Origin: Verrucomicrobiota bacterium
Lineage (GTDB): Bacteria; Verrucomicrobiota; Verrucomicrobiia; Chthoniobacterales; UBA10450
Length of the DNA stretch: 42,166 bases
Reading direction: 5' to 3'
Assembly: GCA_003220075.1 (NCBI GenBank)
Contig: QHRJ01000042.1
Coordinates: forward strand, 4,374-46,539
Positions 4,064-42,166 of this stretch are shown piece by piece (the stretch's first letter is position 1; each line of letters begins with the position of its first letter). Position numbers and translations under genes: made by a program. The notes under the pieces were generated by a model. It saw nothing but the letters and a program-made list of their open reading frames with translations, made no database searches and had not been told where the DNA came from.

Positions 4064-4121
4064 CTACTTTCCTAGCTGCGTTCGCCACCGTCGAGACGAA
4101 AGCGCCGCTTCGTTTTTTTAA

Positions 4122-23463: not shown

Positions 23464-24300
23464 TCACTGAGCACATTCGACCGCGTGAACCTGGACCGGC
23501 CGATCAAAACCTTTCAGAGAGACTTCGCCCAAGGGACGAAACATTAGCCCCTTTCCAATGCATAATTCCGCTACCGCGGTCGATACCAGGATTTGATCGG
23601 GTTGGGCGTGGGAACAAAGGCGTGCCGCCAGTTGAACGGTTGTTCCAAAGATATCGTTGTTTTGCTCGACTGGTTCACCGGCCGCGCCACCGATCCGAAC
23701 TTTGATATGGTGATCGCGTTCCTCTCGCTCACGCCGCGCCAACTCACGCTGGATTTGCATTGCACAACGGACCGCGGCTGCGGCTGATACAAAAGACGCC
23801 ATGATGCCATCGCCCGTGTGCTTCACTTCGCGTCCCTTCGACGCGGCCAAAGCGTCCCGCACGATGCTGTCGTGCACGCGCAAAAATTCCATCGCTATCT
23901 CGTCCCCTAACTTCTGCGTCAGTAAGGTTGAGTCGACGATGTCCGTAAATAAAACAGTTCGGATTCCGGGATCTCGCGCGTCGACTGCGCCACCGGGTAA
24001 AAGGGCTGCGCCTGCCGTATTTACTTCGCTGCCGCCGAGGAACAAATCGGCGACTTCCGGCTCAACTTGAATAATTTTTTCCGCGACCAGGCCGTGCGCT
24101 TCGCGATGGACTTGCTTGGCGGCTTCAGCAGTTGGTGCCTCGCAAAGGCAAAAGATTTTGCCGGCGCTCTCATTCACCCAGTACCTGTGATAATGAACAC
24201 CGTATTTCCCCTCGACCGCGACATCATGGGCGTGCGCCTTGGCCACTTCTTCGGCGGTGATTCCTCCCTGAATCTCGTGAATGTCCATGTATGTTGGCAT
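23464..24300 (-). CDS. DUF4242 (SCO4226-like) domain fused to a class III nucleotidyl cyclase domain
   Basis: ATG 24300 gives MPTYMDIHEIQGGITAEEVAKAHAHDVAVEGKYGVHYHRYWVNESAGKIFCLCEAP...AHGLVAEKIIQV. The cyclase part follows: VLFTDIVDSTLL, HTGDGIMASF, RIGGAAGEPV, DIFGTTVQLAARL. Confidence 0.8.
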   Translation of the reverse strand: MPTYMDIHEIQGGITAEEVAKAHAHDVAVEGKYGVHYHRYWVNESAGKIFCLCEAPTAEAAKQVHREAHGLVAEKIIQVEPEVADLFLGGSEVNTAGAALLPGGAVDARDPGIRTVLFTDIVDSTLLTQKLGDEIAMEFLRVHDSIVRDALAASKGREVKHTGDGIMASFVSAAAAVRCAMQIQRELARREREERDHHIKVRIGGAAGEPVEQNNDIFGTTVQLAARLCSHAQPDQILVSTAVAELCIGKGLMFRPLGEVSLKGFDRPVQVHAVECAQ

Positions 24301-24319
24301 CGGATCTCGCGGCGGCAAC

Positions 24320-24832
24320 CTATCCTGAGGCGAGCCGATACTCAACGTCGATCTTGGCCGGCCGACTCAATGTTTGGTAAACAACGCAGTATCGTTCCGT
24401 CAGGCGAAGCAGGGTAGCCAGTTGCTCTTCGCTCGCATCGGTGTCGAGATCGAATTGCAATCGTATCTGCTGGAAACCGACCGGTACGTCCTTCGACACT
24501 CCCAAGGTGCCGCGAAAATCGAGGTCGCCTTCGGCACGCACTATGGCATCCCGTAACCGGATACCGAGCGCGGTAGCGACCGCATTCAAAGTAACACCAG
24601 CGCATCCGACTAATGCCTCAAGCAACATATCGCCCGAGCAAGCGCTGAGACCGTCGCCACCGGTAGCGGGATGAAGCCCGGCTTCGACCGACGCCTTTCC
24701 CGTTTCTATCTTGCAGGTAACACCTTCACCAAGCCGTCCTTCGGCCCGGAGCGTGATGCGCGCTTTCTCTGGTTCCTGCCGGTATTGCTGCTTCACCGGC
24801 GCTTGCAAGGATCTTAGTTCCTCGGCATTCAT
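24320..24832 (-). CDS. OsmC/Ohr-family peroxiredoxin-like protein
   Basis: The 170-aa protein has the OsmC pattern with two Cys residues (GLSACSGDMLLEALVGCAG). Confidence 0.85.
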   Translation of the reverse strand: MNAEELRSLQAPVKQQYRQEPEKARITLRAEGRLGEGVTCKIETGKASVEAGLHPATGGDGLSACSGDMLLEALVGCAGVTLNAVATALGIRLRDAIVRAEGDLDFRGTLGVSKDVPVGFQQIRLQFDLDTDASEEQLATLLRLTERYCVVYQTLSRPAKIDVEYRLASG

Positions 24833-26251: not shown

Positions 26252-26407
26252 GGAAGACTCAATAAAGAGTCGGGCGAGCGCTATTCAAGCGAACATAATG
26301 TCGAGAGCCTTGAGAAAAGGAGACCGAAGTCAGATAAGTAATGGAGGGACACGCGCTGTCGTGTCCCAAATATTGGGCGCCGACGGCGCGGCGCCCTCCA
26401 CCGGGGG

Positions 26408-28335
26408 CTAGTCGCCGTTCGCACTTGCGGGTAGCGCGATGCTAACCGCAGTGCCGCTCGTGCTGGTATCGATGTCAACACGACCGTTGTGATCGAACAC
26501 GGTCCGCTTGACGATCGGCAGACCCAGTCCCATGCCGCGCGCTTTTGTCGTCTGGCGCGGCCGCCTTCGTGAATCGGCTTGGCCGAAAGTGTGATCTTCG
26601 GTTTTTTCTGCTCGGTGACGGCTTCGGCCGCGTTCGCGACCAGATGCGCCACCGCTTCGGCCAGCGCCCCTTCATCGCCAAGAATCTTTGGCAAATTGGC
26701 AGGCAGTTCCGTTTCCACCGCCACGCCGCCGTTGACCCGAAATTTGCTGCGCGCAAGCTCGAGCCCGCGCTTTACCGGGGTGCGAATATCCAGCGGTCTC
26801 ATCTTCAATTCCGGCGGATGAGCGAAAGCATTGATCTGGGTAATGATCTTATCGAGACGATCGATTTCCTGAACGACGATCTGGTTGAAATTTTTTCGGA
26901 ACTCCGGATCATCGAAACGCTCGGGCAAAAGTTGCGCGAAAGTCTTAATCGCGACGAGTGGATTGCGAATTTCGTGCGACATACTCGCGGCCAAGTCCGT
27001 CCAAAAGGCGGCGCGATCGACCAGGTCTTGCTTTTGCCGCAAATTTTCCTCCACGGTCAGATCGTGAACGACGGCGACGGCACCGAGGGGAGTTTGCTGG
27101 TCGAGGAGTCGCCGCGCTTCGACCGAGAGGGAGCGGCGTGTGTTCGGATCGATCCACTGCCGCGGAGGAAGATTCGACTTTGCCCCAAGAGTTTCCCGCA
27201 ACATGATGGCCAGCCTTCGACCAACGGCTTCAATCGGCCGGTTGAGCGCATCGGAAGTTTTCAGCCCGAGGATCGATTCCGCGGGGGGATTAAACCAGCG
27301 AGTGATGCCTTCTTCATCAATGGCAACGATTCCCGGTGGGATCGATTTCAGGAGCGTTTCGGCCAGGGTTTTTTGCAGTGTGACCTCTTCGTAGAGAAGC
27401 GCGTTCTCGAGAACGGTGGAAACATGCTCGGCCAGGATCATCAGGCCTTCGAGATCACCGTAATCAAAGGGTAAACCGGTGATGCGATGGCCGAAAAACA
27501 GCCAGCCGATAATCTGGCCACGTGCATAAAGAGGGACGATAACCTCGGCGCCAACGCTATCGAGCGCCCGACGCAAGAGCGGCCGCTGATTTTGCGCGGC
27601 GATGTGTGCGAGGTTGGCGCGAGAAACGAGGTGCCCATGTAATTCGAACCAGCGGACCAGCGGATCGCGCTCGTTGTACTCGATCTCGTTAGTTTCTGGC
27701 AGGCAGCGCAGCCCGGCACGCAGGCGATAGCGATCTCCCTGACGCATGCGCGAAAAAATTCCAACGCGGGTCACGCCGGCGGCGTCCGCCACTCCTTCAA
27801 CGATGCTGGCGAGCAATCCTTCGACATTATCCAGGCTCCGAAAGACACGAGGGAAACGCAGCAGCGGCAGCGATGGCGCGTGCGCACGCTCCAGCACTGG
27901 CTCGGCCCGGCGGGGCTGTTCCGCTGAAGGACGATAATGCGATTGTTCGCGCAGGTCGCGATTCTCCTGCATGACCTTTAGGTGATCGAAGGCGCGGCCG
28001 ACCAGGGTTTGAAAACGGTGACGGTCGAGCTGCAAATCTTCCGCCGCATAAATGTCGGATTGTTCGGCCTCGCGCAGCGGTTCGGAGCGAGGGGCGCCAA
28101 GAGCGATGACGAGCGATTCCGGCCAATCCTGTTCGAGTTGCTCGAGCAAGTCGCGGCATTCTTTTGCTCGCAGATCCATTAAAATTACCGCGGGCGAATT
28201 CTGTTGCAGCACGGCTTCCATCCGATTGGGGTCAGTGAGGTGGCGAACCAGTGCCATCGTGCGGAGAAAAGCTTTGACCCGTCGCGCCAGCTCAGCGTCC
28301 TGGGTATAGAGAATGCAAATGGGAGCGGCGCTCAT
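26408..28335 (-). pseudogene. REC-like / GAF / PAS / HisKA / HATPase sensor kinase with a broken ATPase domain
   Basis: The H-box is SHEIRNPLVAIKTFAQLLPERF and the N-box is HLVANAAEAV. After ...KPIHEGG (about 26560) the frame shifts. The real tail TTKARGMGLGLPIVKRTVFDHNGRVDIDTSTSGTAVSIALP...* continues in another frame to a stop at 26408. The G1 (DxGxG) segment is absent. The track ORF runs out of frame to 26281. Confidence 0.65.
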
Positions 28336-30747
28336 GCGGCCACCACTCCCTGATCAAAATGCACCAGCGGCAGAAAAATGTGAAAGACACTTCCCTTGGC
28401 TACCTCGCTTTCAACTTCGATTTGTCCGCCATGTTCCTCGATAATTCCGTGCACCACAGAAAGGCCGAGACCGGTTCCGAAATCTTTCGTCGTGAAAAAC
28501 GGATCGAACACCCGGGCAATATCCTCCCTTTTTATCCCCTCACCGGTATCGCGAATGGAAATGCATAGCGCTTCATGCCGCTTCTCGTCCGCCGGCAAAA
28601 GGTGCGTCACGAGAGAATCACCGGTCCGGATTTCGGTCTCCACCGTGAGCTCGCCGCCGCGTTTCATCGCATCCATGGCATTAAGGAAAAAATTGAGAAA
28701 AACCTGTTCCATTTGATCTGAGTCGGCCCGGATAGTATCGAGGCTTGCCTCCAACGTCCGGGTGAGTTTGATCTCCTTTTGATTCAACCGATGTTGAACG
28801 AGTTGAAAGGTTTTCTCCAGTACTTCGTGCACATGCATCGGCCGGAGCAACGGTTTTGCCGGGCGTGCAAACCGGAGCAGCTGATTGACCAGTGAATCGA
28901 TCCGATCAATCTCGTGCACGATTAAGCTGGAAAAGGTGTCGCGGAAATCAGACTCGTGGTAGCGCTCTGGTAAGAGCTGAGCAAAAGTCTTGATAGAAAC
29001 CAGCGGGTTCTTAATCTCATGCGCCATTCCGGCTGAGAGCGTCCCGAGGCTGGCGAGGCGATCGCTGCGACGAATTTGCAGCTCGAGCCGTTTCAGCGCG
29101 GTGATGTCGGTCACCACCATCAGCGCGCCCAGGAGCTCGCCGCCTTGACCGCGAAAAGTTGCGCTGCTAGCGCGCGCAAATGTGCTTCCCGCCGCGGCCC
29201 GCAATTCGACTTCCCGGTCTTCCTGGCGCTCCCCCGAAGTCAAAGTAGTCTGAATGATGTCACGCAAGGGTGCGGGCAGATCGTCAACCATTCGTTCTCC
29301 GCCGTTGGTATTCAAGCCGGCTATTTGCGCCGCTTCCTGAGGTGAATAGCTCGGCGTTTTCAATGGCGACGGCAAGTTGACCGCCCAACACCTGAAGCGC
29401 GCTCTGTTCAGTACCGCCATAAACGCGGCCGGAGAGCCTTGGCCCGAGAAGCATGATGCCCACGAGGTGCTCGCGTGAGAGAATCCCGACCGCAGCCGCA
29501 GCCCCGGCTGCTTCCAGCTGGCGGCGAATGGCAAAGGTCGTTGCGGTTCCACGAACGCGGTGAAGCTCTTCGAGGATGAGCGGTTCGTGATGAGCGGTCA
29601 ACCATTGCACCAAGGGCTCCTCCTCCTTGAATTGATCAACTATCCCAGGTAAACTGGAAAGCGGATAGCTTTTTCGAAAAACTTTACGCTGCGCGAGGTA
29701 GATCGTTACGCTATCAGTGCCGACAGCCTCACCAATCGTCGTAGCAAATCTGCGCAACAAGTCCGGCAAGGTAGTTACCGATTCCAGGATGGCCGCCGCC
29801 TTGCTAACGGTGGCACGAAAATCGATTCCACGGCCACCGACAAAAAGACGATCGGCTAACCTTTGAGAGAAGCCACGCGCCGGCGCCATGGCGAAGGTGA
29901 CGACCAAAGCTGCCGCGATGTGGGCAAAAGTGCGATCGGTTGAATAAAAAAGAGAGACTGTTACCTGGGCTACAAGCCACCAAACCGCTCCGTAAAGGGC
30001 AAGTAAGTATGTTGTGAGGACCCCGTAAGAAATCGCGCGCCGCAGAAAGAGGCCAACGTCCATGATCTTTCGCGTGGAAATCCCATAGGCGATGATCAGT
30101 GTGAATAGGACGGCTCGAAGTGGCGCAAACCAAAACAACTGAGAGGGTGGGACGAAGAACCGTAATATCTGGTAGGCGCCGAGAGTAAGAACCAGGATGA
30201 AAGTAGGGCCGAGTAAAAGGTAGCCGAGTTCCGATCGAATCCTACCGGAGCTATTCCTAAGATCGCGCAGAGAAGCGACAAGAAGAACAACCAGGGCACT
30301 CCCGAAACAGCAACCATAAAGATAGACACCCCAGCCATAGATCGGCTGTGGTGCGGCTCCGGGTTGATCAGGGAAGCGTGCTCCCTTCAAGAGAAGATTT
30401 GACTGACAGAAAATGATGAGGGCGAGAGCCAGGATGATCCATCCACGGGAGTGACGAAGGACATCTCGCCAAGTCGCGTCCGGCATGACCGTAAAAAGCC
30501 GGAGGAAGTTTAACGCTAATAAAATGAGGACAGCGGCAGCAAATGCTACTCGCATGTTTGTTGCAACAAATGCTAGATCGTGGCTAGTCGAACCAAAGTA
30601 GAGACTTGCCAGCCAGCAAATCATGGCGATCGACAGGATGAGGAAACTTTGGGTCGCCTTGCGATGGCGATTGGTGATGAAAACAGCGAACCCCACCGCC
30701 GCCTGGATCATTAACGCCCCAAGAATCGGGACTGCTTGACTGTTCAT
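28332..30747 (-). pseudogene. multi-TM / GAF / (PAS) / HisKA / HATPase sensor kinase split by an internal deletion/frameshift
   Basis: ORF 29284..30867 (true ATG 30747, MNSQAVPILGALMIQ) encodes about 8 TM helices plus a GAF domain ending in AIENAELFT. ORF 28332..29552 carries the rest: EAAQIAGL..., AHEIKNPLVSIKTFAQLLPERY, and an intact HATPase (DTGEGI, GTGLGL). The junction is at 29337..29345, and the first third of the PAS domain is missing. Confidence 0.65.
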
Positions 30748-31997
30748 TAGCAAAATACGCGATCCATCACCAACGAGCTGGCGCTTCCCCCGAGACCGCG
30801 CACATTCAAAAGCGCCTGGTGCACTTTGGCTTTGCGCGCGCGCAGCGGAACAACATCGAGATCGCAATCAGGATCGGCGGTCTGATAATTTGCCGTGGGA
30901 GGGATTAGTTGATCACGGATCGTTAGGGCACAGGCTGCGATTTGGAGCGGCCCTGCCGCGGCTAATGGATTCCCAGTGACGCCTTTGATGGAGCTAATCG
31001 GAATAGAATAGGCGTAGGGGCCAAATACCTCTTTGATAAATCGAATCTCGGCTGCGTCTAATATCGGATCTCCAGGTCCGTAGGCCGATATGTAATCGAT
31101 TTGGCTCTTTTCGCAGCGTGCGTTTGCCAATGCCATCTCCATGGAGCTGCGCAGGCCAGATCCATACTGAGCCGGCTCAAGATCGCGTTGGGCGGCATAA
31201 CCAGTTAGTTCGAGGTAAACATGTGCTCCTCGCGCTTCCGCCCGTTCCAGGTTTTCCAGCACGAACATTCCAGCACCTTCTGCCAGGACACCGGATTCCC
31301 GGTTTAAATCGAACGGTTTACTTGCACTTTCCGGATCTCCATTATGCGGGACCGTTAGACCGCTAGCTATAAAAGCCGCTACGGTATGAGGAGTTAAGGG
31401 CGCATCAGCCCCGCCGGCGATGGCGAGTTCGGCTTCTCCCGTGCGAATTGTCATGGCTGCGCTGGCAACGGCATCCAAGCCAGATGGACAGGCCGTTGAC
31501 ACTGTCGCCGCATGCGCACGCACGCCAATTCGATCTGCAATGGCATTAGCAGCGGCCTGCGGCTTCAATGCAGAAATCGCCGTCGGCGACATGCCGCGAA
31601 AACCGTGCCGGTCGAAATCGCTAATTGATCGTTCGATAATGTCCATCGCACTGGTGCTCACTCCAACGACAACCGGAGTGGGGCTCGGTAAATCTGCATC
31701 GTTAATCTCCAAGCCCGCGTCTTTCAGTGCCATCATTGTCGCGGCATAGGCGAACTGGGTATGACGTGCCATTCGCTTCGGCTTAAGTTCTGGCTCGATA
31801 TATTCAAATGGATCAAAATTCTTCACTTCCCCGGCGATTTGGCTTTTCAAATTGCTGGCGTCGAAAAGTGTGATTCGGCCAATGCCGCTACGGCCTTGGA
31901 GAAGCGAATCCCAGAATGCTTCCAATCCGACCCCATTCGGGGCGAGAACCCCCATCCCGGTGATGACGACGCGGTTTTGCTTAATCATAGCGCGCAC
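30747..31997 (-). CDS. FabF-like beta-ketoacyl synthase homologue with a non-canonical active site (Cys-Tyr-Asn)
   Basis: It matches KAS II over its full length: VVITGMGVLAPNG, STAC(170)PSG, the thiolase-fold C-terminus. AHGTxT is replaced by AY(306)GPGD, and GHxxGAAG by GN(343)PLAAAG. Confidence 0.85.
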   Translation of the reverse strand: MRAMIKQNRVVITGMGVLAPNGVGLEAFWDSLLQGRSGIGRITLFDASNLKSQIAGEVKNFDPFEYIEPELKPKRMARHTQFAYAATMMALKDAGLEINDADLPSPTPVVVGVSTSAMDIIERSISDFDRHGFRGMSPTAISALKPQAAANAIADRIGVRAHAATVSTACPSGLDAVASAAMTIRTGEAELAIAGGADAPLTPHTVAAFIASGLTVPHNGDPESASKPFDLNRESGVLAEGAGMFVLENLERAEARGAHVYLELTGYAAQRDLEPAQYGSGLRSSMEMALANARCEKSQIDYISAYGPGDPILDAAEIRFIKEVFGPYAYSIPISSIKGVTGNPLAAAGPLQIAACALTIRDQLIPPTANYQTADPDCDLDVVPLRARKAKVHQALLNVRGLGGSASSLVMDRVFC

Positions 31998-32160
31998 CAG
32001 CCGACGAAGAACCTGATCCGTCCAAAGGTTGGTTTAGACGAGTCGCGAAAAAGTTTAGCGCTGAAAGCAAACGAAGCTCTGGCATGCATTAAAGAGCCAA
32101 ATTCTAATGTCCCCACTAAATGCAGTCATTATATTTTCCATCCCCTGTGCCCCGCTGCAC

Positions 32161-32188
32161 TTATTCACAATTTTTCAGTTATTCACAA
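32161..32188. promoter_or_regulatory. direct repeat TTATTCACAA x2 in the divergent KS-operon / REC-HK intergenic region
   Basis: There are exact 10-mers at 32161..32170 and 32179..32188 (18-nt period) in an AT-rich patch. This is a candidate regulator binding site and rests on inference only. Confidence 0.3.
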
Positions 32189-32303
32189 GATCGATCTTGC
32201 GCGCCGTCTGTTTTTGTTTAACCCTCCGCCAAGCCCGCAATTGTTTCAGCCCGCGATAATTCACATTGAATACGGCACGCCCCTAGCTCTAAATCCGCCC
32301 ACA

Positions 32304-33464
32304 GTGCACATCTCCGCTGCTCCCGATCCTGCCAAGGTTCTCATCATCGATGATGAAATCGGACCACGCGAAAGCCTGCGCATGCTGCTCAAGCCTAGCT
32401 ATCAGGTCCATACGGCGGAAAACGTCGAGACGGGCCTGCAACTCTTACAGGAAAAGCGCCCTGATACCATCGTAATGGATATTCGCATGCCCGGAATGAA
32501 CGGTATTGATGGCTTGCGCAGGATCCGCGAAATCGATCCGCATCTTTCCGTGATCATGTTCACCGGTTTCGGCGCGCTCGAGACCGCCCAGGAAGCGCTC
32601 CGGCTCGGCGCTAACGATTATATCAACAAACCTTTTGACGCTGTGCAGATGCGCGAAGTGATCGGCCGCAACGTCGAGCGAACCCGTGTGCAGCGGCAAA
32701 GCGAGACGACCGCGCACGAACTGCAAGAACTAAACGAGCGCCTTCGCAACGAGCTCGCCCAAAAAGAACGCCTCGCTTCTCTCGGGCAGGCGTCGGCTGA
32801 ATTTGTGCACGATCTGAGTAATCCACTCACGATCGTCTGGGGTTACGTTCAAATTTTGGCCAAGAAATTGGAGCAATCTGGTGATGGGAATAACGGCGAA
32901 CGCAACGCGAGCTCATCCAGAGAATTGCACATTATCGAACAAAACGTGCGGCTTTGCCGTGAGCTTCTGACGATGTGGCAAAGCTACGGCAGGGTGGGTG
33001 CCATCAAACCGAAACCAATCTCGATGTCCAGCATCGTCCAGGATGTCGGCCAGAGCGTCACCGGCATGGCATCGCAAAACGGTGTCCAACTGGACTGCCA
33101 TATTGCCGAAGAAGAATTGACAGTTCTGGGCGATCCGACGCAGCTGACGCGCGCATTGCAGAACGTCATTGTAAATGCCATCCAGGCCGCAACCGAGAAA
33201 CATGGCAAGGTTGTGGTGAATTGCCGGGAGAAGGATCTTTACGCCGACATCCAGGTGCGAGACACCGGGTACGGAATTGCGGAGGACGAAATTGGAAAAA
33301 TCTTCGAGCCCTATTTCACTACCAAGCAGGGGAAAAATGGCACCGGTCTTGGGCTCTACATCACGAAAAAAGTAATCGACGACCACAAAGGATCGATCGA
33401 CGTGGCCAGCACCCTGGGAGTTGGAACGACCTTCACGCTGCGGCTGCCGCTGCACGATAAGTAA
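32304..33464 (+). CDS. hybrid response regulator-histidine kinase (REC-HisKA-HATPase)
   Basis: The REC domain has VLIIDDEIGPRE, IVMDIRMPGMNG and GANDYINKPF. The H-box is FVHDLSNPL. The HATPase boxes are NVIVNAIQA, DTGYGI and GTGLGL. The first ~180 codons of the 31761..33464 track ORF overlap the KS gene antisense. GTG 32304 is the first plausible start. Confidence 0.8.
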   Translation: MHISAAPDPAKVLIIDDEIGPRESLRMLLKPSYQVHTAENVETGLQLLQEKRPDTIVMDIRMPGMNGIDGLRRIREIDPHLSVIMFTGFGALETAQEALRLGANDYINKPFDAVQMREVIGRNVERTRVQRQSETTAHELQELNERLRNELAQKERLASLGQASAEFVHDLSNPLTIVWGYVQILAKKLEQSGDGNNGERNASSSRELHIIEQNVRLCRELLTMWQSYGRVGAIKPKPISMSSIVQDVGQSVTGMASQNGVQLDCHIAEEELTVLGDPTQLTRALQNVIVNAIQAATEKHGKVVVNCREKDLYADIQVRDTGYGIAEDEIGKIFEPYFTTKQGKNGTGLGLYITKKVIDDHKGSIDVASTLGVGTTFTLRLPLHDK

Positions 33465-33646
33465 GCTATAGTGGGTTCTCGGCGGGGGCCCGCGCCTGCT
33501 CCAATCTGATTTGGATCGGAAATCAGGATTCAAAGACGCGAACCTGCTTAGCGCAATCCTTAAAGGTTTGGATGCGGAATGTTCGATGCTTCGTACTAAT
33601 GAACCCGACGCCCTTACCTCAATTCTCTCCCTGACGCAGGGGAGGA

Positions 33647-33744
33647 CACAGGTCGTGGGTGCCTTTGGAAATCAGAGTGGGAGACCGTACACAGGTCGCG
33701 GGTGTCTTGGGAATCAGGGCAGGAGACCGTAAGCGAAGCGCCGG
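33647..33744. repeat. two tandem 42-43-nt repeat units plus shared flank
   Basis: Unit 1 is cacaggtcgtgggtgcctttggaaatcagagtgggagaccgta (33647..33689). Unit 2 is cacaggtcgcgggtgtcttgggaatcagggcaggagaccgta (33690..33731). Unit 2 plus its flank is repeated at 12690..12744. Confidence 0.65.
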
Positions 33745-36342
33745 GTGAGGGTCCTCTGGTTGTCGGAAGGCTGCGTCGCCTCCGGCCGCGCCGCGGGATA
33801 TCGAACTTACTTGCGGTGCTACCAATTCGTCGCACCGCAAAACCGCCCAAGTTGTCACGTAACAAAATACAAACCGCTTGTCAGGCCGCGACAGTTTCGT
33901 TTTGCTGCGAGCGTGTCCTCTGCCTACCGGATCGCTTCGCCGTTTTTAATTCGACTGGCCGGAGTTCCCTTTGATGTTCTTGAGGAGCTTGCGACGCCAA
34001 ACGCGTGCGCCGTCGCGCGCGATCTAATTGCGCAGGAAAAAGAACTCCACCACCTCAAAAGCGCTGCTCTGGAATTTGTCACTCGTCGCGATAGCGGTCT
34101 TAGCTCTGAAGAGTTCGCGGCCTGGCGCACTGCCATTCGTCGCGATAAAATTCCCGAGCAGAAAATTCCGCAACCGCTTCAAGAATACACGCGGGTTGCG
34201 ACCGCCGCCGAACGGGCACGCTCGCTGTTGGAACATCAGCTTCAAGAGGAATTGAGCCGAGCACGTCGCGCCTTGTTGCAAACAAGTCAGCGGATTCTTC
34301 CACGCTATCTCGTCTTCGGCTCGGGTCAGGTTCATCACCTCATCGATCACTCCGCCGGCGAGCTTCCCCCTCGCAACAGCCGCACCCGCGAACGTGAACG
34401 TCACCTTCTGCTCTACCTCCAGCGTATCGCGGCCAAGAACGATACCTTTAGCGAATTCGGTCCTTCCGCCTGGGGTTCGGCCAGTCAAAGTGGTTCCGCG
34501 CTAAATTTTGAACCGCGTCCGGGCATGGCGCGCCGCGAAGTTTTTCTGGAACGCTGGACGGCGCATGCTATCGCCGCAGCGATCAATTCCGATCCGCAAA
34601 CTTTTTCGGAGCACCGGCCGCGCCTCAATCCAATTGGCCTTCTCATCGGGAATCGTTTCGTCTTTGTGGATAGCGGCGACGTGATCGATCTTGCGCCCTC
34701 GGAAATAGAAATTATCGCACGGTGCAATGGCGCAACGCCCATACACGCGCTGATCCAGTCCACCAATGGAAACCAGTCTGCTGCAGCGCCCATCAGCGGA
34801 GAGCTCGATGTCATTCGCGGTTTGATCGATAAAAAGATCCTGATCGCTGCGCTGGAAGTTCCGGCGCTCGAACCCTTCGCCTTCCAGATTTTGCACGACG
34901 ATATCGCGGCCTGGCGCGAGGGAGCGGCGCGTCAGCGTTGGCTGCCGCTTGCTGATTCACTGGTTAAGTCCGCCGCGGATTTTTCAGGAACAACCGAGCC
35001 GACTCAGCGCCAACAAATTTTTTCCGCAGCGCGCCAGCAGCTTTCTCAGGTCGGCGCGGAACGCAAACCAGGTCAGCGCTCGCTTTATGCCGCAGTCAAT
35101 CCAATCGCGGAAGAATGTTTCCGCGATTGCAGATTCGAAATCAGCGAAACTCTTCTCGACGAAGTCGTAACCGACACGGAACCCTGGATCGATTTTTGGC
35201 GCGATAATTATGCTTTTGTCGCGTCGCGCGTTGCCGCCGGTTTGCGCATGGTATTGGAAAAGGTTGGAAAAAATACGCTGCCGCTGCCCGCGTTTTTGCG
35301 CGCCTGCGAAACAGCGAAGCTTCCATTGACCGGTCCAGGTCTCGTTGGCCTGGCCGTGATGGCGTTTCAGGAAATTAAAGTCGCCTTTCGCGAACGACTG
35401 AACCCGCACGGCCACCTCGCCGAGTATGAACTCACCGCCGCCGATTGCCACTTCGTGCGCGAAAATTTTTCCTACCAGAAATTTGACGAATTCACTTTTC
35501 CTTCCGGCGATTTACAACTTGCGGCCAAATCGCAGGACGCGATTTTGCGCGGCGAATATCGCTGGATCCTAAGCGAGCTGCATCCGGCTGCCGCTACCTT
35601 GCATCATTGTATGTACTGGAGTTGCCCCGATCACACCGCCCTTTCCCGTGCGCTTCAACTAAGCACGAGCGGCAAACCATTTTTTCATTTCGGTTTTTTC
35701 GCGGCCGATTTTACCGCCCATACTACGGTGCGGATTTTCGATGCCCTACCCCAGCAGGCGGTCTTCGCTGCGCCGCAGCGCGGTAATCCGCGATGGCACT
35801 CCGTTTCACCAGCGCACGCTGAAGTTTTTATCGAGCAAGATGGCGACGTCGCGCTTCGCGCCAATGGCCAATATCTCGGGTCCTTTGCCCGCAATTGGAT
35901 CATTCCACTTGGGTTTCATCCCTTCCAATTTGGGTCGGCGCCGCATACACCGCGCCTCCGTTGCGGGCGCGTTATTGTCCAGCGCCGCAGCTGGTCGGTC
36001 TCCAGCGAGGAAATGGGCGATGGAAATTTCGCTGGCCTTTCGCGTGAACTGGTTCTCGCCATTGAAAGATTGCGAGCCGCCAAAGATTGGCCCCGCTTCG
36101 TTTACATTCGCCCGACTGAACAGGCGTTGCGACGGAGTGGCGCGGAAGGTCGCGACAAAGATACCAAACCAGTTTTCATCGATCTCGAGAGTTATCTTTT
36201 CCTCGAAATTTTTCATCGCTGGCTGAGTAAAGCCGGTGAGTTGGAAATAACAGAAATGTTGCCCGCGCCTGAAGAACTTTGGTGGCACGAAGCCGATGGC
36301 CGTCGCACTTTCGAGCTGCGCACGCTGATGGTGCCGCGATAA
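33745..36342 (+). CDS. lantibiotic-dehydratase (LanB) family protein with the glutamylation domain only (small LanB / PEARL-like)
   Basis: Motifs are YRIASPFLIRLAGVPFDVLEEL, YLQRIAAKNDTFSEFGPSAWG (34414..34476), TPRLRCGRVIVQRRSWSV and PRFVYIRP...PVFIDLESYLFLEIF. The protein ends where the SpaB_C elimination domain would begin. The start is uncertain; GTG 33913 (VSSAYRIASPF) is plausible. Confidence 0.7.
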   Translation: MRVLWLSEGCVASGRAAGYRTYLRCYQFVAPQNRPSCHVTKYKPLVRPRQFRFAASVSSAYRIASPFLIRLAGVPFDVLEELATPNACAVARDLIAQEKELHHLKSAALEFVTRRDSGLSSEEFAAWRTAIRRDKIPEQKIPQPLQEYTRVATAAERARSLLEHQLQEELSRARRALLQTSQRILPRYLVFGSGQVHHLIDHSAGELPPRNSRTRERERHLLLYLQRIAAKNDTFSEFGPSAWGSASQSGSALNFEPRPGMARREVFLERWTAHAIAAAINSDPQTFSEHRPRLNPIGLLIGNRFVFVDSGDVIDLAPSEIEIIARCNGATPIHALIQSTNGNQSAAAPISGELDVIRGLIDKKILIAALEVPALEPFAFQILHDDIAAWREGAARQRWLPLADSLVKSAADFSGTTEPTQRQQIFSAARQQLSQVGAERKPGQRSLYAAVNPIAEECFRDCRFEISETLLDEVVTDTEPWIDFWRDNYAFVASRVAAGLRMVLEKVGKNTLPLPAFLRACETAKLPLTGPGLVGLAVMAFQEIKVAFRERLNPHGHLAEYELTAADCHFVRENFSYQKFDEFTFPSGDLQLAAKSQDAILRGEYRWILSELHPAAATLHHCMYWSCPDHTALSRALQLSTSGKPFFHFGFFAADFTAHTTVRIFDALPQQAVFAAPQRGNPRWHSVSPAHAEVFIEQDGDVALRANGQYLGSFARNWIIPLGFHPFQFGSAPHTPRLRCGRVIVQRRSWSVSSEEMGDGNFAGLSRELVLAIERLRAAKDWPRFVYIRPTEQALRRSGAEGRDKDTKPVFIDLESYLFLEIFHRWLSKAGELEITEMLPAPEELWWHEADGRRTFELRTLMVPR

Positions 36343-36381
36343 CTCCGTGAAATTCTCGCTATCAGATAGAAAAAGGGGAGC

Positions 36382-36493
36382 GCGGGCGTCTTGCCCGCTT
36401 TGTCCGGCATCCTGCCGGACAGTCTTCTTTAATGATCGGTCAAGAAGATCCGCAGGCGAGACGCGTGCGGCCCCCACAGACAAGATGCCTGTG
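36382..36493. repeat. cluster of three GC-rich hairpins (REP-like) between the LanB-like gene and parA
   Basis: The hairpins are GCGGGCgtcttGCCCGC (36382..36398), GTCCGGCAtccTGCCGGAC (36402..36420) and CACAGACAagaTGCCTGTG (36475..36493). Confidence 0.45.
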
Positions 36494-36504
36494 CCACGTC
36501 GCAA

Positions 36505-37305
36505 ATGAAAATCATCGCCATCGCGAATCAAAAAGGCGGCGTCGGCAAAACTACCACCGCGGTGAATCTCGGGGCTGCGCTGGCGGAACGTGCGCAACGC
36601 ATTCTGCTCATTGATCTCGACCCACAGGGCAATGCCACCAGCTCGCTCGGAATGCAGGACTTCGAAGGAGAAAGCCTATACGATCCTTTGCTGGGCGAGA
36701 CGACCCTTGCTAACAAAATTTTGCCGACGCGATTGGATCACCTCTTTCTCGTTCCAGCCGATCTCGATCTTGCCGGCGCGGAAGTGGAAATTGCACGGAT
36801 GCCGGATCATTTGCTCCGGCTGGCGCGAACATTGCAACCGTTGCGGGCCGACAGCGCCTTCGATTTTGTGCTGCTCGATTGTCCGCCTTCACTTGGAATT
36901 CTCATGAGCAACGCGCTCGCAGCGGCCGATGAAATTCTGACCCCGATTCAATGCGAATACTTCGCGCTGGAAGGTCTGGTCAAAATTGTGCGCGTGGTCG
37001 AGCAAGTGCGTGATTCGGGAGCAAATCCGAATGTTGAAATCGGCGGCATCCTCATGACGATGTTTGATAGTCGCACGAATTTGAGCGCACAGGTGGTGAC
37101 GGAAGTGCGCCAACATTTTGCCGCAAGAGTTTACGACACCGTTATTCCGCGGACGGTGCGCTTAAGCGAAGCGCCCAGCTTCGGCAAAACCATTCTGGAA
37201 TACGACAAAACCGGCGCCGGCGCCCGCGCCTACCGTGCTTTGGCGGACGAATTCATCCGGCGTCACGCGCCAGTTGCCGCCACCGCCGAAAAAGGTGAGG
37301 CCTGA
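36505..37305 (+). CDS. parA: ParA/Soj-type partition ATPase
   Basis: The protein has MKIIAIANQKGGVGKTTTAVNLGAALA (deviant Walker A), IDLDPQGNAT and VLLDCPPSLG, and is 266 aa. Confidence 0.9.
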   Translation: MKIIAIANQKGGVGKTTTAVNLGAALAERAQRILLIDLDPQGNATSSLGMQDFEGESLYDPLLGETTLANKILPTRLDHLFLVPADLDLAGAEVEIARMPDHLLRLARTLQPLRADSAFDFVLLDCPPSLGILMSNALAAADEILTPIQCEYFALEGLVKIVRVVEQVRDSGANPNVEIGGILMTMFDSRTNLSAQVVTEVRQHFAARVYDTVIPRTVRLSEAPSFGKTILEYDKTGAGARAYRALADEFIRRHAPVAATAEKGEA

Positions 37306-37421
37306 TCCTTCGCTCTGTTAGAAAGCGCCAGAGGACTGGCGCAGTCCAAGACGCTTCGCGAATTGGGACGCTTCAAAACATGCGCCAGCTTTGGAGTGGG
37401 GCAGCCCTCTGCCGCACCCAC

Positions 37422-37952
37422 TCATTCGGCCTCACCTCGGAGCTTCATCCACTGCTTCCGCGTAATAGCGAAGACGAATGTAGGAAAACCTCTGAAAGTG
37501 GTTTCCCTTTCTAAGGTCATTCCATTTTTCTCCGCCACTCGACGCGATGCCTGATTATCGGGATGGATCAACGAAATCAGGTACTCTAGTTTCAAATCGC
37601 GAACGCCATGATCGCGGACCGCGCGCGCTGCTTCGGTAGCAAGTCCGCGGTTCCAAAAATCCCGCTGCAGCCGATAACCGATCTCAATTTCCATTTTGCC
37701 GTCGACTTCATGATGAAAGAAACCGCAGTAGCCAGCGAGCGTGCCGCTCGACCGCACAATCATGGCGAATTGTGATGGCAAACCATCTCGGTTCCAGCCG
37801 ATCACTTTATCGAGAAAACCCTGCACTTGTTCTCGCTTCATCGGGCCCATCGAGAAACGCATGAAATCTTTGTCCGCCATCAATTCCCCCATCCGATCGA
37901 GATCATCGGCGGCGAATGGGCGCAGAATTAAACGCGGAGTTTCCAGGATCAT
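37422..37952 (-). CDS. GNAT-family N-acetyltransferase (RimJ/RimL-like)
   Basis: The protein has TPRLILRPFAADDL and IEIGYRLQRDFWNRGLATEAARAV (acetyl-CoA motif A), and is 176 aa. Confidence 0.85.
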   Translation of the reverse strand: MILETPRLILRPFAADDLDRMGELMADKDFMRFSMGPMKREQVQGFLDKVIGWNRDGLPSQFAMIVRSSGTLAGYCGFFHHEVDGKMEIEIGYRLQRDFWNRGLATEAARAVRDHGVRDLKLEYLISLIHPDNQASRRVAEKNGMTLERETTFRGFPTFVFAITRKQWMKLRGEAE

Positions 37953-38039: not shown

Positions 38040-38681
38040 ATGCGAGCGAACGGACAAGATAGTTGGCGCCCGGCGCCCGTGCCGGAAACGAACAGCCTTG
38101 CTAAAGTTGTGGCCGCTGCGAAAGAGTGCACAGCCTGTCCGCTATACAAAAGAGCAACGCAGACGGTCTTCGGCGAAGGTCCGAAGCATGCCAAGATGTT
38201 GATGATCGGCGAGCAACCGGGCGATTATGAAGATGTGGCTGGGAAGCCATTCGTCGGTCCGGCAGGAAAAATTCTGGATCGCGCACTGGAGGAAGCAGGA
38301 ATTAATCGGGACGAAGTTTATGTCACTAACGCGGTGAAACATTTCAAATGGGAACCGCGCGGGAAACGACGGATTCATCAGAAACCGAGCTCTCGCGACA
38401 TCGCCGCCTGCCGGCCATGGCTGGAAACCGAGCTACGCCTGGTCGAGCCCAAGCTTGTTGTTTGTCTCGGTTCAACCGCGGGGCAGACAATCTTCGGACC
38501 GAGCTTCCGTGTCACGAAAGAACGTGGCAAAGTTTTATCGTCACGTTTTGCACCGAAAGTCGTGGCCACCGTTCATCCTTCCTCGCTCTTGCGTCAGCCC
38601 GATGAAGAATCCCGCGAACGCGAGTACAAAAATTTTGTCGCGGACCTGCGCGTTGCCGTAAAAGCAGCGGAGGCGAAATGA
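38040..38681 (+). CDS. udgX: family-4-related uracil-DNA glycosylase of the UdgX type
   Basis: The protein has CTACPLY, GEGPKHAKMLMIGEQPGDYED, VKHFKWEPRGKRRIHQKP (KRRIH at 38364..38378, His codon 38376..38378) and VHPSSLLR. Its layout is collinear with M. smegmatis UdgX as I recall it. Confidence 0.8.
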   Translation: MRANGQDSWRPAPVPETNSLAKVVAAAKECTACPLYKRATQTVFGEGPKHAKMLMIGEQPGDYEDVAGKPFVGPAGKILDRALEEAGINRDEVYVTNAVKHFKWEPRGKRRIHQKPSSRDIAACRPWLETELRLVEPKLVVCLGSTAGQTIFGPSFRVTKERGKVLSSRFAPKVVATVHPSSLLRQPDEESREREYKNFVADLRVAVKAAEAK

Positions 38682-39478: not shown

Positions 39479-39491
39479 GACGACCTCTTTT

Positions 39492-39564
39492 GGGGGTATA
39501 GCTCAGTTGGTAGAGCGTCTCGTTCGCAATGAGAAGGCCAGGGGTTCGAATCCCCTTACCTCCA
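39492..39564 (+). tRNA. tRNA-Ala (anticodon CGC)
   Basis: A manual cloverleaf fold works: acceptor GGGGGTA/TACCTCC with the G3:U70 Ala identity pair, D arm GCTC-AGTTGGTA-GAGC, anticodon arm TCTCG-TTCGCAA-TGAGA, T arm AGGGG-TTCGAAT-CCCCT. CCA is not encoded. Confidence 0.9.
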
Positions 39565-39894
39565 GTCCCGAAAGGTCGGGGCTGTCGCGCTGTAGCTATC
39601 GACCTGGCCGATTATCTCCACAGCGATAGGAGTTCTATCATCGGTTGCAGTGATTTCCTGAAGCCTTTCCACGATGCCTCGACGCTGGAGTCGTCGCAAC
39701 GGCTTCACCACTCGCACGTAGAAAGCGTGAGCATTCTCGTCAAAAGGATTGGATTGCCAAAACCTTCTGCCAACCCCGATTTCTAGTAGTCGCACTTTGT
39801 AGTAATCCGGCTCCAGCATTTTGGCATAATCGCTACGCGAAGTGACTGATAGTCTGGGAACAGCCGCCTAGCTGTGGCAATTTTGTTCGGGCGC

Positions 39895-40029
39895 CTAACC
39901 ACCGGTCAGCTTTCGTACGAGGCGTCTAACAACGTTGCCGCTGCGTTTGGTGTCACCACGATCGCCCTGGCCCTTGGCCACTTTTGTCTTGGCCTTTCTG
40001 CGCCGATCTGCCGCAAGTGATTGGCCCAT
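39895..40029 (-). CDS. candidate 44-aa basic small protein
   Basis: The ORF encodes MGQSLAADRRRKAKTKVAKGQGDRGDTKRSGNVVRRLVRKLTGG. It is preceded by AAAGAGG 5 nt upstream of the ATG, and an in-frame MKEVN extension is possible from 40044. I recognise no homology. Confidence 0.3.
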   Translation of the reverse strand: MGQSLAADRRRKAKTKVAKGQGDRGDTKRSGNVVRRLVRKLTGG

Positions 40030-41493
40030 GTTAACCTCTTTCATGAATTGACCGGCTTTGTTATACCTGAGGTAGCGTCGATGCCCTTTGCGCGGCTGTT
40101 ATAACAGTTCGTTTACTGGCCTTCGTGATCGTTTGGTTGGCATTGATCCCTCCTTTTTTGCTCTTATTTCGCACTCCAATCGATCTTTGGCTTTGACGGA
40201 CGCAGAGCCGGTGGAAGCGACGATATTTTGATGATGTGCCCCCGAATCGATCTGGTTAGACTGTCCACACGCGCGCGCGGAAAAAGGCCGCAGATGGTAC
40301 AGATCATCTTAGTTGAAAATGTAGCGCTGGGCTGCGCCCAGTACCGTTTCGGCGAGAAAAACAAGGGGAGATCGTTGCCGCCCCAATGACGCCTGCAGAG
40401 CTTACTAATATTATTGTTTATCTTAAAGATCCAGTTAGTATGGTAAATACGTATCTATTAAGGCAGGATAGGACGAATGAGTTCGGACGAGTATCACGGG
40501 GCCACCGAGGGCAGAACGGGCAAGGTAACGGGGAAAACCGCTGTACCTTGTGATCCATCGCATGGGGATTCTACGGTCCGGCCAATTTCGACCGCCCGGA
40601 AGCGGCCGACCATCGGCCAAACTCAAAAGCTGTTGCTTGCGGCACTTCGGCTGTGGGAACTGAAAAATGGCTTTCGCCGATAGGTTAAGTTTGCGCTGTG
40701 TTTTTCACGCTTGCCGATTCAATAACGCTCTTACATTTATCTGTCCGACCGTCTGCCAAGGATGGACAAAGCGAATCTCGATTCCCCGACGAGGCGATTA
40801 TCAAATACAATTTGGCCTCGCTACGAGAGCGTGACCGGCGACCTTGAATCGGCAAAAGCATATTTTGAGGAAATGCTTTGAGATTAATCTGAGCTGGCGT
40901 TTGGAAGATGAGGATTTGGAATCTCTTTAGGAGGCCATATAGACGATGATGTTCGTCGGCGATGTAAATCTGCGCGATTTCGGCAATTGCCTAGGCGGTC
41001 AGTGGCATTGCCGACATAAAGCCAATGCGCCGCAAATGAGTCGCAGCCAGACGTTGGACGCTTCAGCAAGTAGCGGCCGCGTTGGTCACGCAAAATTTCG
41101 ATCTGCCGGCCCCTGAGTATTCGCTCGCATAAGACACAAAGACGTTCATCGTCAAGCGAAGACCGGGTTCGACTTGTCGCCCGCCCTCAAAACCTTGAGG
41201 CGTTCTTGGGCTGTGAGATCATCTCTTTGCATAATACTGAAAAGAAAAACCAATTATTCAGCGTCAACAATCAGGCGGTATTCTGGTTGCTTAGTAGGCG
41301 GAAATCTTATCGCCACCGGCTACCACGTGAAACAGGTGCCGATTTCGTGGATCAATCGATCCCCGGAAATCGGTGCATCTTCATTCCGGCTCATTCGCGT
41401 AGGCGGGGGACATTGGCGTGCCTTGTGAACGTCTGGTGATTTATGCCTAGCGATATGATTGTCTAAGACCCGGCTGCATGGAAATTCGGTAAG

Positions 41494-41766
41494 ATGCCAA
41501 GCTCTACCTCAGTGTCGGAACGAGCGAAGGCTCTGTCGGCGGAGACGAACTGGTCTCTACTGCTCGTGGTCTTTGGATTGTCTGCGGTCCTTCAGGTCGT
41601 TATCGCGAGCCGAAGCGGCCTGTGGGCAGACGAGATTTACTCACTGGCATATGCAACGGGACACAGCTTGGAGCACCCAGCGCTACAGCGGACCCGCAGC
41701 GAGGCGATTTCGTTGAGCCCAACCACCCCATGCCGCACACCGCGACGGAAAACGATTCATCGTTAA
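41494..41766 (+). pseudogene. N-terminal fragment of a GT39/PMT_2-like membrane glycosyltransferase
   Basis: The TM helix WSLLLVVFGLSAVLQVVIA is followed by SGLWADEIYSLAYATGHSLEHPA (the loop-1 DE motif). The sequence then continues more plausibly in another frame (ADPQRGDFVEPNHPMP) and stops. No further TM helices follow. Confidence 0.45.
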
Positions 41767-41990
41767 GGCCGTTGATTTGTTGAGCGCAATTCTTTCGCTG
41801 GAGAGAGACGCGATAGCGCCAAAAGACGCTAACGGGAACGCGACGTGCCAGAACCTCGCCTAGGAGTACGCTCATTGAATCGCGAGCGCCTGATTCAGCG
41901 ATACGAACACAACTATTTTCGCGGTTGGATCGTCAGCACTTAGCGATGAGGCAGAAGGTATGCGCGTTCCTGGCGAAGGCCGAATAGCTG

Positions 41991-42166
41991 TTATCGAGGT
42001 CTAAGCTCCCACTCCTTGCCGGGGGTCAACCACACCCCTGATGGGCGGAGAAAAATCAGATTCGAATCCCACAGCGCAGTGAACAGATAGGTCCCCCCCG
42101 GTTCGACGTTCACTGTTGTCGAAGTCGGCTGCGGCAAGCCCACGTAGGACGCTGTGTTCACTGTTA
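41991..42166 (-). CDS. 3' end of an unidentified gene that continues beyond the window
   Basis: The minus-strand frame is open from the window edge: ...TVNTASYVGLPQPTSTTVNVEPGGTYLFTALWDSNLIFLRPSGVWLTPGKEWELRPR*. I do not recognise a family. Confidence 0.3.
   Translation of the reverse strand, partial: TVNTASYVGLPQPTSTTVNVEPGGTYLFTALWDSNLIFLRPSGVWLTPGKEWELRPR

Follow-up and report, generated by a model that had tools for sequence, protein, structure and literature searches.

A LanB-fold enzyme with peptide aminoacyl-tRNA ligase-type residues in a conserved kinase and ParA gene block of Chthoniobacterales

What does an enzyme of the lanthipeptide dehydratase (LanB) family do next to sensor kinases and a ParA ATPase? 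The question is raised by an open reading frame (ORF) in a Verrucomicrobiota assembly of the order Chthoniobacterales (GenBank GCA_003220075.1, contig QHRJ01000042.1, positions 4,374 to 46,539), a stretch of 42,166 nt referred to below as the window. To our knowledge, every stand-alone LanB-fold enzyme described to date, whether a peptide aminoacyl-tRNA ligase (PEARL) or a split LanB, belongs to natural-product biosynthesis. Their known substrates are carrier peptides, precursors of peptides that are synthesized ribosomally and modified after translation (RiPPs), and one product of a non-ribosomal peptide synthetase (NRPS) (PMC11212132). A first-pass annotation, made from the DNA letters alone, had described the gene as a stand-alone orphan; it is instead the middle gene of a three-gene operon within a conserved six-gene block. 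We consider it fairly probable, from the residue pattern and the gene neighbourhood, that it encodes a functional PEARL-type (LanB-C) ligase that was recruited into a signalling and partition operon and that acts on something other than a classical neighbouring carrier peptide.

The ORF is present where the first-pass annotation placed it, on the forward strand from 33745 to 36342, and is open over 865 codons. The true start is most likely the GTG at 33913, which gives an 809-aa product, because orthologues are 797-816 aa long and begin there in the N-terminal alignment; this leaves the ~56 codons between 33745 and 33913 as non-coding DNA upstream of the probable start.

33913..36342 (+): LanB-fold gene, predicted PEARL-type, 809 aa, GTG start (orthologue lengths, N-terminal alignment, PF04738, AlphaFold2 model, dN/dS)

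The product matches the Lant_dehydr_N model PF04738 at 54.3 bits (E=8.9e-15; gathering cut-off 28 bits), an annotation that its homologues also bear in precomputed form, and has no match to the SpaB_C elimination domain PF14028 at E<=1. No family among the NCBIfam models matched. A single-sequence search of the PDB gave no matches and a family profile was needed; with it, TbtB (6EC7) is matched at E=2e-26 in an alignment that reaches residue 854 of the 861 in the chain, so the protein stops where a stand-alone glutamylation protein (split LanB) stops. Full-length LanBs go on from this point into the elimination domain, as the first-pass annotation had proposed from a set of motifs that all lie where it described them: the YLQRIAAKNDTFSEFGPSAWG block at 34414..34476, then TPRLRCGRVIVQRRSW, then PRFVYIRP...PVFIDLESYLFLEIF, and the end ELRTLMVPR*. 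An AlphaFold model built from a shallow alignment of 20 close homologues was unusable (pLDDT 63, TM ~0.26) and was replaced by an AlphaFold2 model built from 40 diverse homologues (pLDDT 93.3, pTM 0.91). The best Foldseek match of this model is TbtB (E=2e-23, TM 0.67), followed by MibB, GodF, NisB and MadB, all at E<1e-15. As modelled, the protein has the complete LanB glutamylation-domain fold, and the profile and structure searches together bear out its assignment to the LanB family with the N-terminal glutamylation-type domain alone.

Codon comparison with six orthologues gives a dN/dS of 0.09-0.17, a sign of strong purifying selection that excludes a decaying relic. The idea of a relic, left behind by a lost lanthipeptide, thiopeptide or PEARL cluster, draws on the lack of biosynthetic partners and on the deletions carried by other genes in the window. 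Set against it are also the intact frame, the invariant catalytic residues and at least 579 related metagenome stretches, and we give it virtually no chance.

Which chemistry would such a protein perform? Two papers from the van der Donk group lay out the residues that distinguish PEARLs from glutamylating LanBs (PMC11117183, PMC11962472). An adenosine-holding Arg, an aromatic residue and a Glu are common to both kinds (R743, F783 and E851 in TbtB), while an ATP-grasp-like Asp and Arg occur only in PEARLs (TglB D542/R803, BhaB7 D558/R815) and are Tyr and Leu in TbtB (PMC11117183, PMC11962472). PEARLs also have a Glu followed two residues later by a conserved His (TglB E564, BhaB7 E575), and TglB E801 and BhaB7 E813 are counted among their ATP-grasp-like phosphorylation residues (PMC11117183, PMC11962472).

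Conservation was scored in 40 full-length homologues with identity down to 21%. R171, D533, E555, R691, E801 and R803 are invariant among them, and R14, Y168 and H557 are conserved in at least 90%. The profile alignment to TbtB equates R691 with R743, Y731 with F783 and E801 with E851. For BhaB7, the sequence was taken from the gBlock DNA fragments printed in the supplementary information of PMC11962472, as machine-read text, and compared by tblastn; counting along these fragments recovers the published numbers D558 and E575. The equivalences are Y168 = Y205, R171 = R208, D533 = D558, E555 = E575 and H557 = H577, with R715 for R691. Residues 143-202 (...YLQRIAAKNDTFSEFGP...) align with BhaB7 (...[Y]LQRLCTKNETTSFFGP...) at 32% identity over 62 aa (E=7e-8), and PSGD533LQLAA aligns with TSPD558LMIAK. 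The pairing of YRWILSE555LH557 with YQVILGE575IH577 was read by eye from the fragment translation, the S618D fragment (which contains indels) having given no tblastn match. A YLQR..KN(D/E)T..FGP block is common to the LanB-like protein and BhaB7, where TbtB and GodF have YVARAxVKTSP. Within this block, Y205 and R208 of BhaB7 are the predicted binders of the tRNA 3'-CCA end (PMC11962472).

34414..34476 (+): YLQR...KNDT.S.FGP block with Y168 and R171 (= BhaB7 Y205/R208) (tblastn against BhaB7, conservation)
35509..35583 (+): predicted ATP-site residues D533, E555 and H557 (= BhaB7 D558/E575/H577; TglB D542/E564/His) (conservation, BhaB7 alignment)
35983..36321 (+): predicted adenine-binding R691 and Y731 with the C-terminal E801-x-R803 (TbtB profile alignment, invariance, literature)

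On this pattern, the enzyme likely uses ATP to activate a carboxylate that is then coupled to an aminoacyl-tRNA, and it would not be half of a Ser/Thr dehydratase. The earlier label of a tRNA-Glu-dependent enzyme gives way here: the residues are instead the PEARL-specific ones (Asp, Glu-x-His, Glu-x-Arg), which are reported to be absent from split LanBs. A Glu-tRNA-dependent Ser/Thr glutamylase, whose elimination partner would be encoded elsewhere or be absent (in which case a stable glutamyl-ester mark would result), is nonetheless suggested by the solved structures. The best matches, TbtB of thiomuracin and GodF of goadsporin, are both split LanBs, resembling the protein in length and end and at a TM of 0.62-0.68 over the full length, and no PEARL structure is among the PDB matches. 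Split LanBs differ in using Glu-tRNA without ATP, in having a separate elimination protein, and in belonging to thiopeptide or linear azole-containing peptide clusters. The PEARL-only Asp and Arg are invariant in the present family, the YLQR..KNDT..FGP block matches BhaB7 and not the YVARAAVKTSP of TbtB, and both the window and the annotated loci L001-L003 lack a PF14028 protein and azole- or pyridine-forming enzymes. We regard the glutamylase as quite unlikely.

The model also contains a winged helix of three strands followed by three helices (by DSSP) at residues ~236-312, which resembles a RiPP recognition element (RRE). Local Foldseek matches are to the RREs of TbiB1 and lasso B1 proteins (TMt ~0.63), and a weak PqqD match is in line with an RRE-like domain.

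34618..34848 (+): RRE-like winged-helix domain (DSSP on the model, Foldseek, weak PqqD match, deletion alignment)

The fold of the N-terminal domain (TMq 0.54-0.60) recurs in full-length LanBs such as NisB, MibB and MadB, as does a leader-binding subdomain of the RRE-like kind; unlike them, the present gene comes without a SpaB_C domain, LanC or LanA. A subclade of ~685-aa proteins (loci L054-L061, L074, L081 and L130-L152) lacks residues ~43-92, a helical hairpin, and ~230-312, the RRE-like domain, with the gene block otherwise intact. This clean loss indicates that leader-peptide recognition is not essential in these enzymes. A dispensable RRE is compatible with the published finding that BhaB7 requires just a C-terminal 12-mer, and with SnaE, which acts on a small non-ribosomal acid (PMC11212132). 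A second group, of ~750-760 aa, is missing only the first segment (~43-92).

What, then, surrounds the gene in other genomes? A scan of one genome per GTDB species gave 79 loci, all titled Chthoniobacterales or unclassified Verrucomicrobia metagenome-assembled genomes, and a soil metagenome scan, which returned almost entirely the same clade, gave 579 or more related stretches, 80 of them retrieved. In total, ~150 loci were compared over ~10 kb on either side of the gene, and neighbours were counted by tblastn with the window's neighbouring proteins in loci with sufficient flank. The LanB-like gene is single-copy and vertically inherited across the order. It belongs to a block of six genes, kept in essentially every sampled Chthoniobacterales genome, in which a ketosynthase-like (KS-like) gene and two histidine kinase genes (HK2, HK1) run one way and a receiver-domain (REC) histidine kinase, the LanB-like gene and ParA run the other way.

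26281..28335 (-): HK1 sensor kinase, GAF-PAS-HisKA-HATPase, ~668 aa in relatives (Pfam, locus comparison)
28332..30867 (-): HK2 sensor kinase, GAF-PAS-HisKA-HATPase, ~840 aa in relatives (Pfam, locus comparison)
30747..31988 (-): FabF-fold KS-like protein, 413 aa (B. subtilis FabF 4LS5 E=3e-81, orthologue alignment)
32304..33464 (+): REC + HisKA + HATPase kinase, 386 aa, GTG start, first operon gene (Pfam, NCBIfam, coordinates)
36505..37305 (+): Soj-type ParA ATPase, Walker A KGGVGKT, last operon gene (PDB 8RAY E=4e-76, Thermus Soj E=2e-67)

Comparison of the orthologues' neighbourhoods reveals fixed partners. ParA is the next gene downstream in 126 of 127 loci, the REC-histidine kinase is the next gene upstream in 124 of 126, and the KS-like, HK2 and HK1 genes lie beyond the REC-kinase on the opposite strand in all 75 loci counted (75/75). 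The stop codon of the LanB-like gene overlaps the start of ParA (ATGA) in 37 of 61 loci, and the gap between it and the REC-kinase has a median of 90 nt (~60 loci). The first-pass annotation had recognized two-component genes and parA as the neighbours, which Pfam confirms together with the ketosynthase-like gene; no orthologue was found in an ordinary lanthipeptide or thiopeptide cluster. Outside the block, the flanking genes vary between lineages. In loci L053 and L129, the LanB-like and ParA genes are retained without the kinases or the KS-like gene, beside an H+-pyrophosphatase and an exosortase gene, so that this pair is the tightest unit. The metagenome contig L089 carries LanB-like and REC-kinase genes 100% identical to those of the window, with 99.75-100% nucleotide identity overall. 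A literature search for this gene block and setting found no description of it in the papers that could be searched. A search with the KS-like protein for a block lacking the LanB-like gene was uninformative, returning only in-clade matches of at least 72% identity.

Such conservation could also mean little. The enzyme may be functional and its neighbourhood uninformative, the six-gene block being leftover ancestral synteny and ParA a housekeeping Soj; all loci are from Chthoniobacterales, ParA is very close to the chromosomal Soj, and genes further downstream that encode a uracil-DNA glycosylase-type protein (UDG), a GNAT and a tRNA-Ala are kept too. The degree of retention differs, however: 98-100% for the block genes against 59-70% for these flanking genes. 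The ATGA overlap with ParA, the survival of the pair after rearrangement in L053 and L129, one conserved promoter for three genes and a KS-like gene that is a dedicated degenerate paralogue also speak against leftover synteny, to which we assign a low probability.

The junction between the LanB-like gene and ParA takes a different form in ~14 lineages, which carry a GC-rich palindromic insert of 127-178 nt instead of the overlap. The window is one such case.

36343..36504 (+): palindromic insert between the LanB-like gene and parA, resembling repetitive extragenic palindromes or miniature inverted-repeat transposable elements, 162 nt, hairpin 36400-36422 (gap distribution, insert alignment; also in L089)

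A hidden gene in this 162-nt gap was considered and rejected, the gap being filled by a palindromic repeat insert confined to those lineages. Both junctions of the LanB-like gene in the window hold inserted repeat DNA, the other being 33465-33912 with a tandem 43-nt repeat at 33646-33731, and the junction with ParA resembles an insertion hotspot.

Could the enzyme be an ordinary PEARL of a 'pearlin' pathway? On this explanation, the genes for its carrier peptide, tailoring enzymes and protease would lie elsewhere in the genome and the kinase and ParA neighbours would be irrelevant. The residues are of the PEARL type, an RRE-like domain is present in most members, the closest outside relatives lie in multi-PEARL arrays, and only ~10 kb on each side was covered. 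Known PEARL systems keep peptide, tailoring and protease genes together (PMC11117183, PMC11212132). In the window, Pfam scans of the 39 other ORFs find no SpaB_C, LanC, YcaO, radical-SAM, peptidase or ABC exporter, in agreement with what had been noticed from the sequence at first, and neither the window nor its annotated relatives encode tailoring enzymes or a product-releasing protease. The search for a carrier peptide covered window ORFs of at least 20 aa in 33400-33960, the gaps in ~60 loci, and 2,436 small ORFs from 80 loci, which were clustered. The small-ORF clusters with members in the greatest number of loci correspond to tRNA genes or to the promoter region, which is read in both directions. 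By clustering and gap sizes in these loci, no conserved carrier-peptide gene was found, as had been suspected for the window when no convincing precursor ORF was seen; the gaps beside the enzyme are too short for one (upstream the median is 90 nt, and downstream the genes overlap by 4 nt). The absence of any partner gene within 10 kb in ~150 loci, the fixed non-biosynthetic neighbours, the overlap with the ParA start, the loss of the RRE-like domain in a subclade, and the single-copy, vertical inheritance across an order make an ordinary PEARL, in our estimate, rather unlikely.

Compared with the characterized PEARLs (TglB/PmaB, BhaB-C(Trp)/BhaB7, BhaB-C(Ala) and AmmB1-4), the protein is alike in length (~800 aa), in having the LanB glutamylation-domain fold and no elimination domain, and in the ATP-site Asp, the Glu-x-His, the C-terminal Glu-x-Arg, and the adenine-binding Arg and aromatic residue, with the YLQR..KN(D/E)T..FGP block as in BhaB7. 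Those PEARLs occur as several paralogues with carrier peptide, tailoring and protease genes, whereas the present gene is a single copy without these nearby; its place is the middle of a sigma-54-type operon, with a REC-histidine kinase before it and ParA after it, and it has been conserved by vertical descent throughout an order. Its clade further differs in the loss of the RRE-like domain in one subclade and in not conserving BhaB7 R429. Another known type is SnaE of threopeptin, a LanB-annotated, carrier-less PEARL-like enzyme found in clusters of NRPS and polyketide synthase (PKS) genes (PMC11212132). Here the resemblance lies in the lack of a carrier peptide and a ketosynthase gene nearby, SnaE being proposed to amidate the free carboxylate of a non-ribosomal substrate. 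The window differs in having no NRPS/PKS line, carrier protein, thioesterase or transporter, and its KS-like gene lacks both catalytic His and is co-transcribed with kinases; among A, T, C, AT and TE domains of NRPS/PKS systems none is found in the window, where a stand-alone FabF-like protein alone is present. The first-pass annotation had named split dehydratases and PEARLs in biosynthetic clusters as the two settings of elimination-less LanBs; neither fits here, as it said, and SnaE is a third setting that it omitted.

How the gene came to this setting is suggested by its more distant relatives. An exhaustive search of representatives found 2,045 relatives of the LanB-like protein. Those at 35-46% identity lie on contigs of 67-76% GC, several in tandem with 1-3 further small LanB genes, and these arrays of 2-4 resemble known multi-PEARL clusters; a relative at 30% identity lies between a pyridoxal-phosphate enzyme and a FabA/ApeI-like dehydratase. 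The Chthoniobacterales gene thus looks like a PEARL from a biosynthetic setting that became fixed in a regulatory one. The label 'lantibiotic dehydratase' is misleading for this clade because there is no elimination domain and there are no RiPP partner genes. The clade is widespread in abundant soil Verrucomicrobia, without biosynthetic partners and tied to a REC-kinase and a Soj-type ParA; if its chemistry matches its residues, signalling, protein turnover or chromosome partition would be candidate roles for its tRNA-dependent amide ligation, with a testable set of six proteins and one tRNA.

The control of the block may be read from the divergent intergenic region (31989-32303), which carries three conserved elements.

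32274..32288 (+): sigma-54-type -24/-12 element GGCACG-N4-TAGCT, 15 nt before the REC-kinase start codon; sole match in the window
32161..32186 (+): two direct TTATTCAC repeats, starting at 32161 and 32179, a possible activator-binding site (intergenic alignment)
32101..32129 (-): sigma-70-type promoter ATGACT-17-TAGAAT for the divergent KS-kinase operon (motif match)

The first element shows the GG/GC spacing of sigma-54 promoters and is found in 62 of 69 loci, mostly 22-25 nt before the aligned REC-kinase start, against 1 in 1380 shuffles. Upstream of it, two TTATTCAC half-sites are present in 38 of the 69 loci, mostly 18-21 nt apart. The ATGACT-17-TAGAAT match is the sole one in 31900-37500 (5.6 kb), and both of its hexamer blocks are conserved in the orthologous intergenic regions. 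From this conserved DNA, we infer that a sigma-54-type promoter drives the operon of the LanB-like gene and a sigma-70-type promoter the divergent one. Among the NCBIfam models, the top scores for HK1 and the REC-kinase go to AtoS and ZraS, two kinases whose partners are sigma-54 activators.

A signal sensed by the kinases would, in the mechanism that we propose for a recruited PEARL-type ligase, reach an NtrC-type activator encoded elsewhere, which would switch the operon on. The enzyme, made together with ParA, would then add an amino acid to the carboxylate of a substrate other than a classical neighbouring carrier peptide, be it a small carboxylic acid or a cellular protein modified at its C-terminus. 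In a PEARL-type step, ATP would phosphorylate this carboxylate, which would then be joined to the amino group of an aminoacyl-tRNA. Among proteins, the candidates are HK2, at its -Ala-Ala end, and ParA, at the tail that follows its conserved last helix; the KS-like protein might present an acyl carboxylate.

Which of these substrates is suggested by conservation? As possible substrates, the C-terminal tails of four block proteins (ParA, REC-kinase, KS-like protein, HK1) were considered and set aside, being variable across loci. The C-terminus of HK2, which ends ...LPLVRFDQEVVAA, is the only conserved one in the block, reading (A/V)-A-A in nearly all genomes (28332-28346 (-) in the window). The codon of its penultimate Ala varies synonymously, which indicates selection on the amino acid. 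The end of HK2 is similar to a degron of the ssrA-like -AA type, or to the tail of a PEARL substrate. A possible donor is a tRNA that lies beyond ParA.

39491..39565 (+): tRNA-Ala(CGC), G3:U70 (Rfam; loosely linked to the block)

An Rfam scan identified tRNA only. The tRNA-Ala(CGC) gene, with the normal G3:U70, is found 0.7-9 kb beyond ParA, on either strand, in 31 of the 44 loci (among L002-L080) that have 8 kb or more of flank, including loci that lack the GNAT and UDG genes in between. The unrelated UDG gene is retained to a similar extent (29/44). It could be old synteny or a dedicated donor tRNA.

A bolder possibility, to which we would give only an outside chance, is that PEARL chemistry here serves regulation. 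The enzyme, switched by a sigma-54 phosphorelay, would put a tail on a cellular protein such as HK2 or ParA and alter its stability or activity, with tRNA-Ala(CGC) perhaps as donor; in a variant, the amino acid would be joined to an acyl carboxylate handled by the KS-like protein, giving an N-acyl amino acid signal that a membrane kinase senses. RqcH alanine tailing and the L/F-transferase are other aminoacyl-tRNA-dependent systems that modify proteins, with different folds and mechanisms. The likeness to them is a speculative one, in which an amino acid from a tRNA would be put on a cellular protein to control its fate. Protein tailing of this sort, if true, would be a new kind that is tRNA-dependent and ribosome-independent.

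Several observations weigh against the recruited PEARL-type ligase that we favor. Firstly, its chemistry is deduced from residues: the match of E801-x-R803 to the PEARL pair is positional, set by E801 = TbtB E851 and the published residue two positions on, rather than by direct alignment to a PEARL, and BhaB7 R429, which was mutated in the PMC11962472 study, is Val in the LanB-like protein. Secondly, all loci come from one order, and some of the synteny may thus reflect common descent instead of function, and ParA resembles an ordinary chromosomal Soj, whose link to the enzyme may be incidental. No gene for a sigma-54 activator (GAFTGA motif) is found in any locus. The conserved substrate candidate among the C-termini of the block is limited to HK2, and there the last codon and the preceding GAGGTG are dictated by HK1, whose start and Shine-Dalgarno sequence overlap them. 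Finally, the window carries deletions in both sensor kinases that, if real, would leave the sensor half of the block broken in this genome.

These deletions have a common look. HK2 is split into two ORFs by a ~98-nt deletion near 29341-29348, and HK1 has lost part of its ATPase domain to a deletion of 79 nt at 26551/26552. HK1, HK2 and a FAD-dependent oxidase (25410) are each 79-99 nt short and frame-shifted relative to relatives 87-95% identical in nucleotides, and 86 nt after the tRNA (39567-39598) are missing relative to the near-identical contig L089. That the four deletions are of similar size points to faults of assembly and not to biology. No such damage is seen in the window's LanB-like gene, REC-kinase or ParA, all three of which are intact.

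The partner proteins themselves show both retained and degraded motifs. The REC-kinase keeps its receiver Asp59 and H-box His169. No ParB motif is found near the block in 86 loci. The KS-like protein keeps the active-site Cys (ACPSG), and in 65 of 65 orthologues the catalytic His residues are replaced by Tyr (AYGPG) and Asn (TGN; TGNPL).

31479-31493, 31071-31085 and 30963-30977 (-): motifs of the KS-like protein (FabF alignment)

The catalytic His residues of KAS I/II enzymes drive malonyl decarboxylation; with both replaced, the KS-like protein probably cannot condense. It scores under the fabF equivalog cut-off of NCBIfam, and its sequence marks it as a dedicated degenerate paralogue, not fabF. 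We know of no described KAS II variant with Cys-Tyr-Asn. The KS-like gene is translationally coupled to the two sensor kinases, and in one relative the N-terminus of HK2 is of a seven-transmembrane type. A known anti-phage defence system is not supported by the PADLOC models, which match neither the LanB-like nor the KS-like protein and give weak generic matches only for the REC-kinase and ParA.

Further genes lie outside the block. A UdgX-family uracil-DNA-binding protein (38040-38681 (+)) and a RimJ/RimL-type GNAT (37422-37952 (-)) follow ParA in ~60-66% of loci, and in many genomes the 3' end of the GNAT gene overlaps that of ParA. The ~2.5 kb after the tRNA (39600-42166) has no ORF of at least 100 aa and a lower GC content of 52%; an integrated element may have left it behind, or it may consist of degraded genes. 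At the other end of the window, 1619-6473 (-) encodes two adjacent paralogous proteins of 814 and 783 aa that combine an adenylate/guanylate cyclase with TPR repeats, and a third cyclase, fused with an SCO4226-like nickel-binding domain, is found at 23464-24345.

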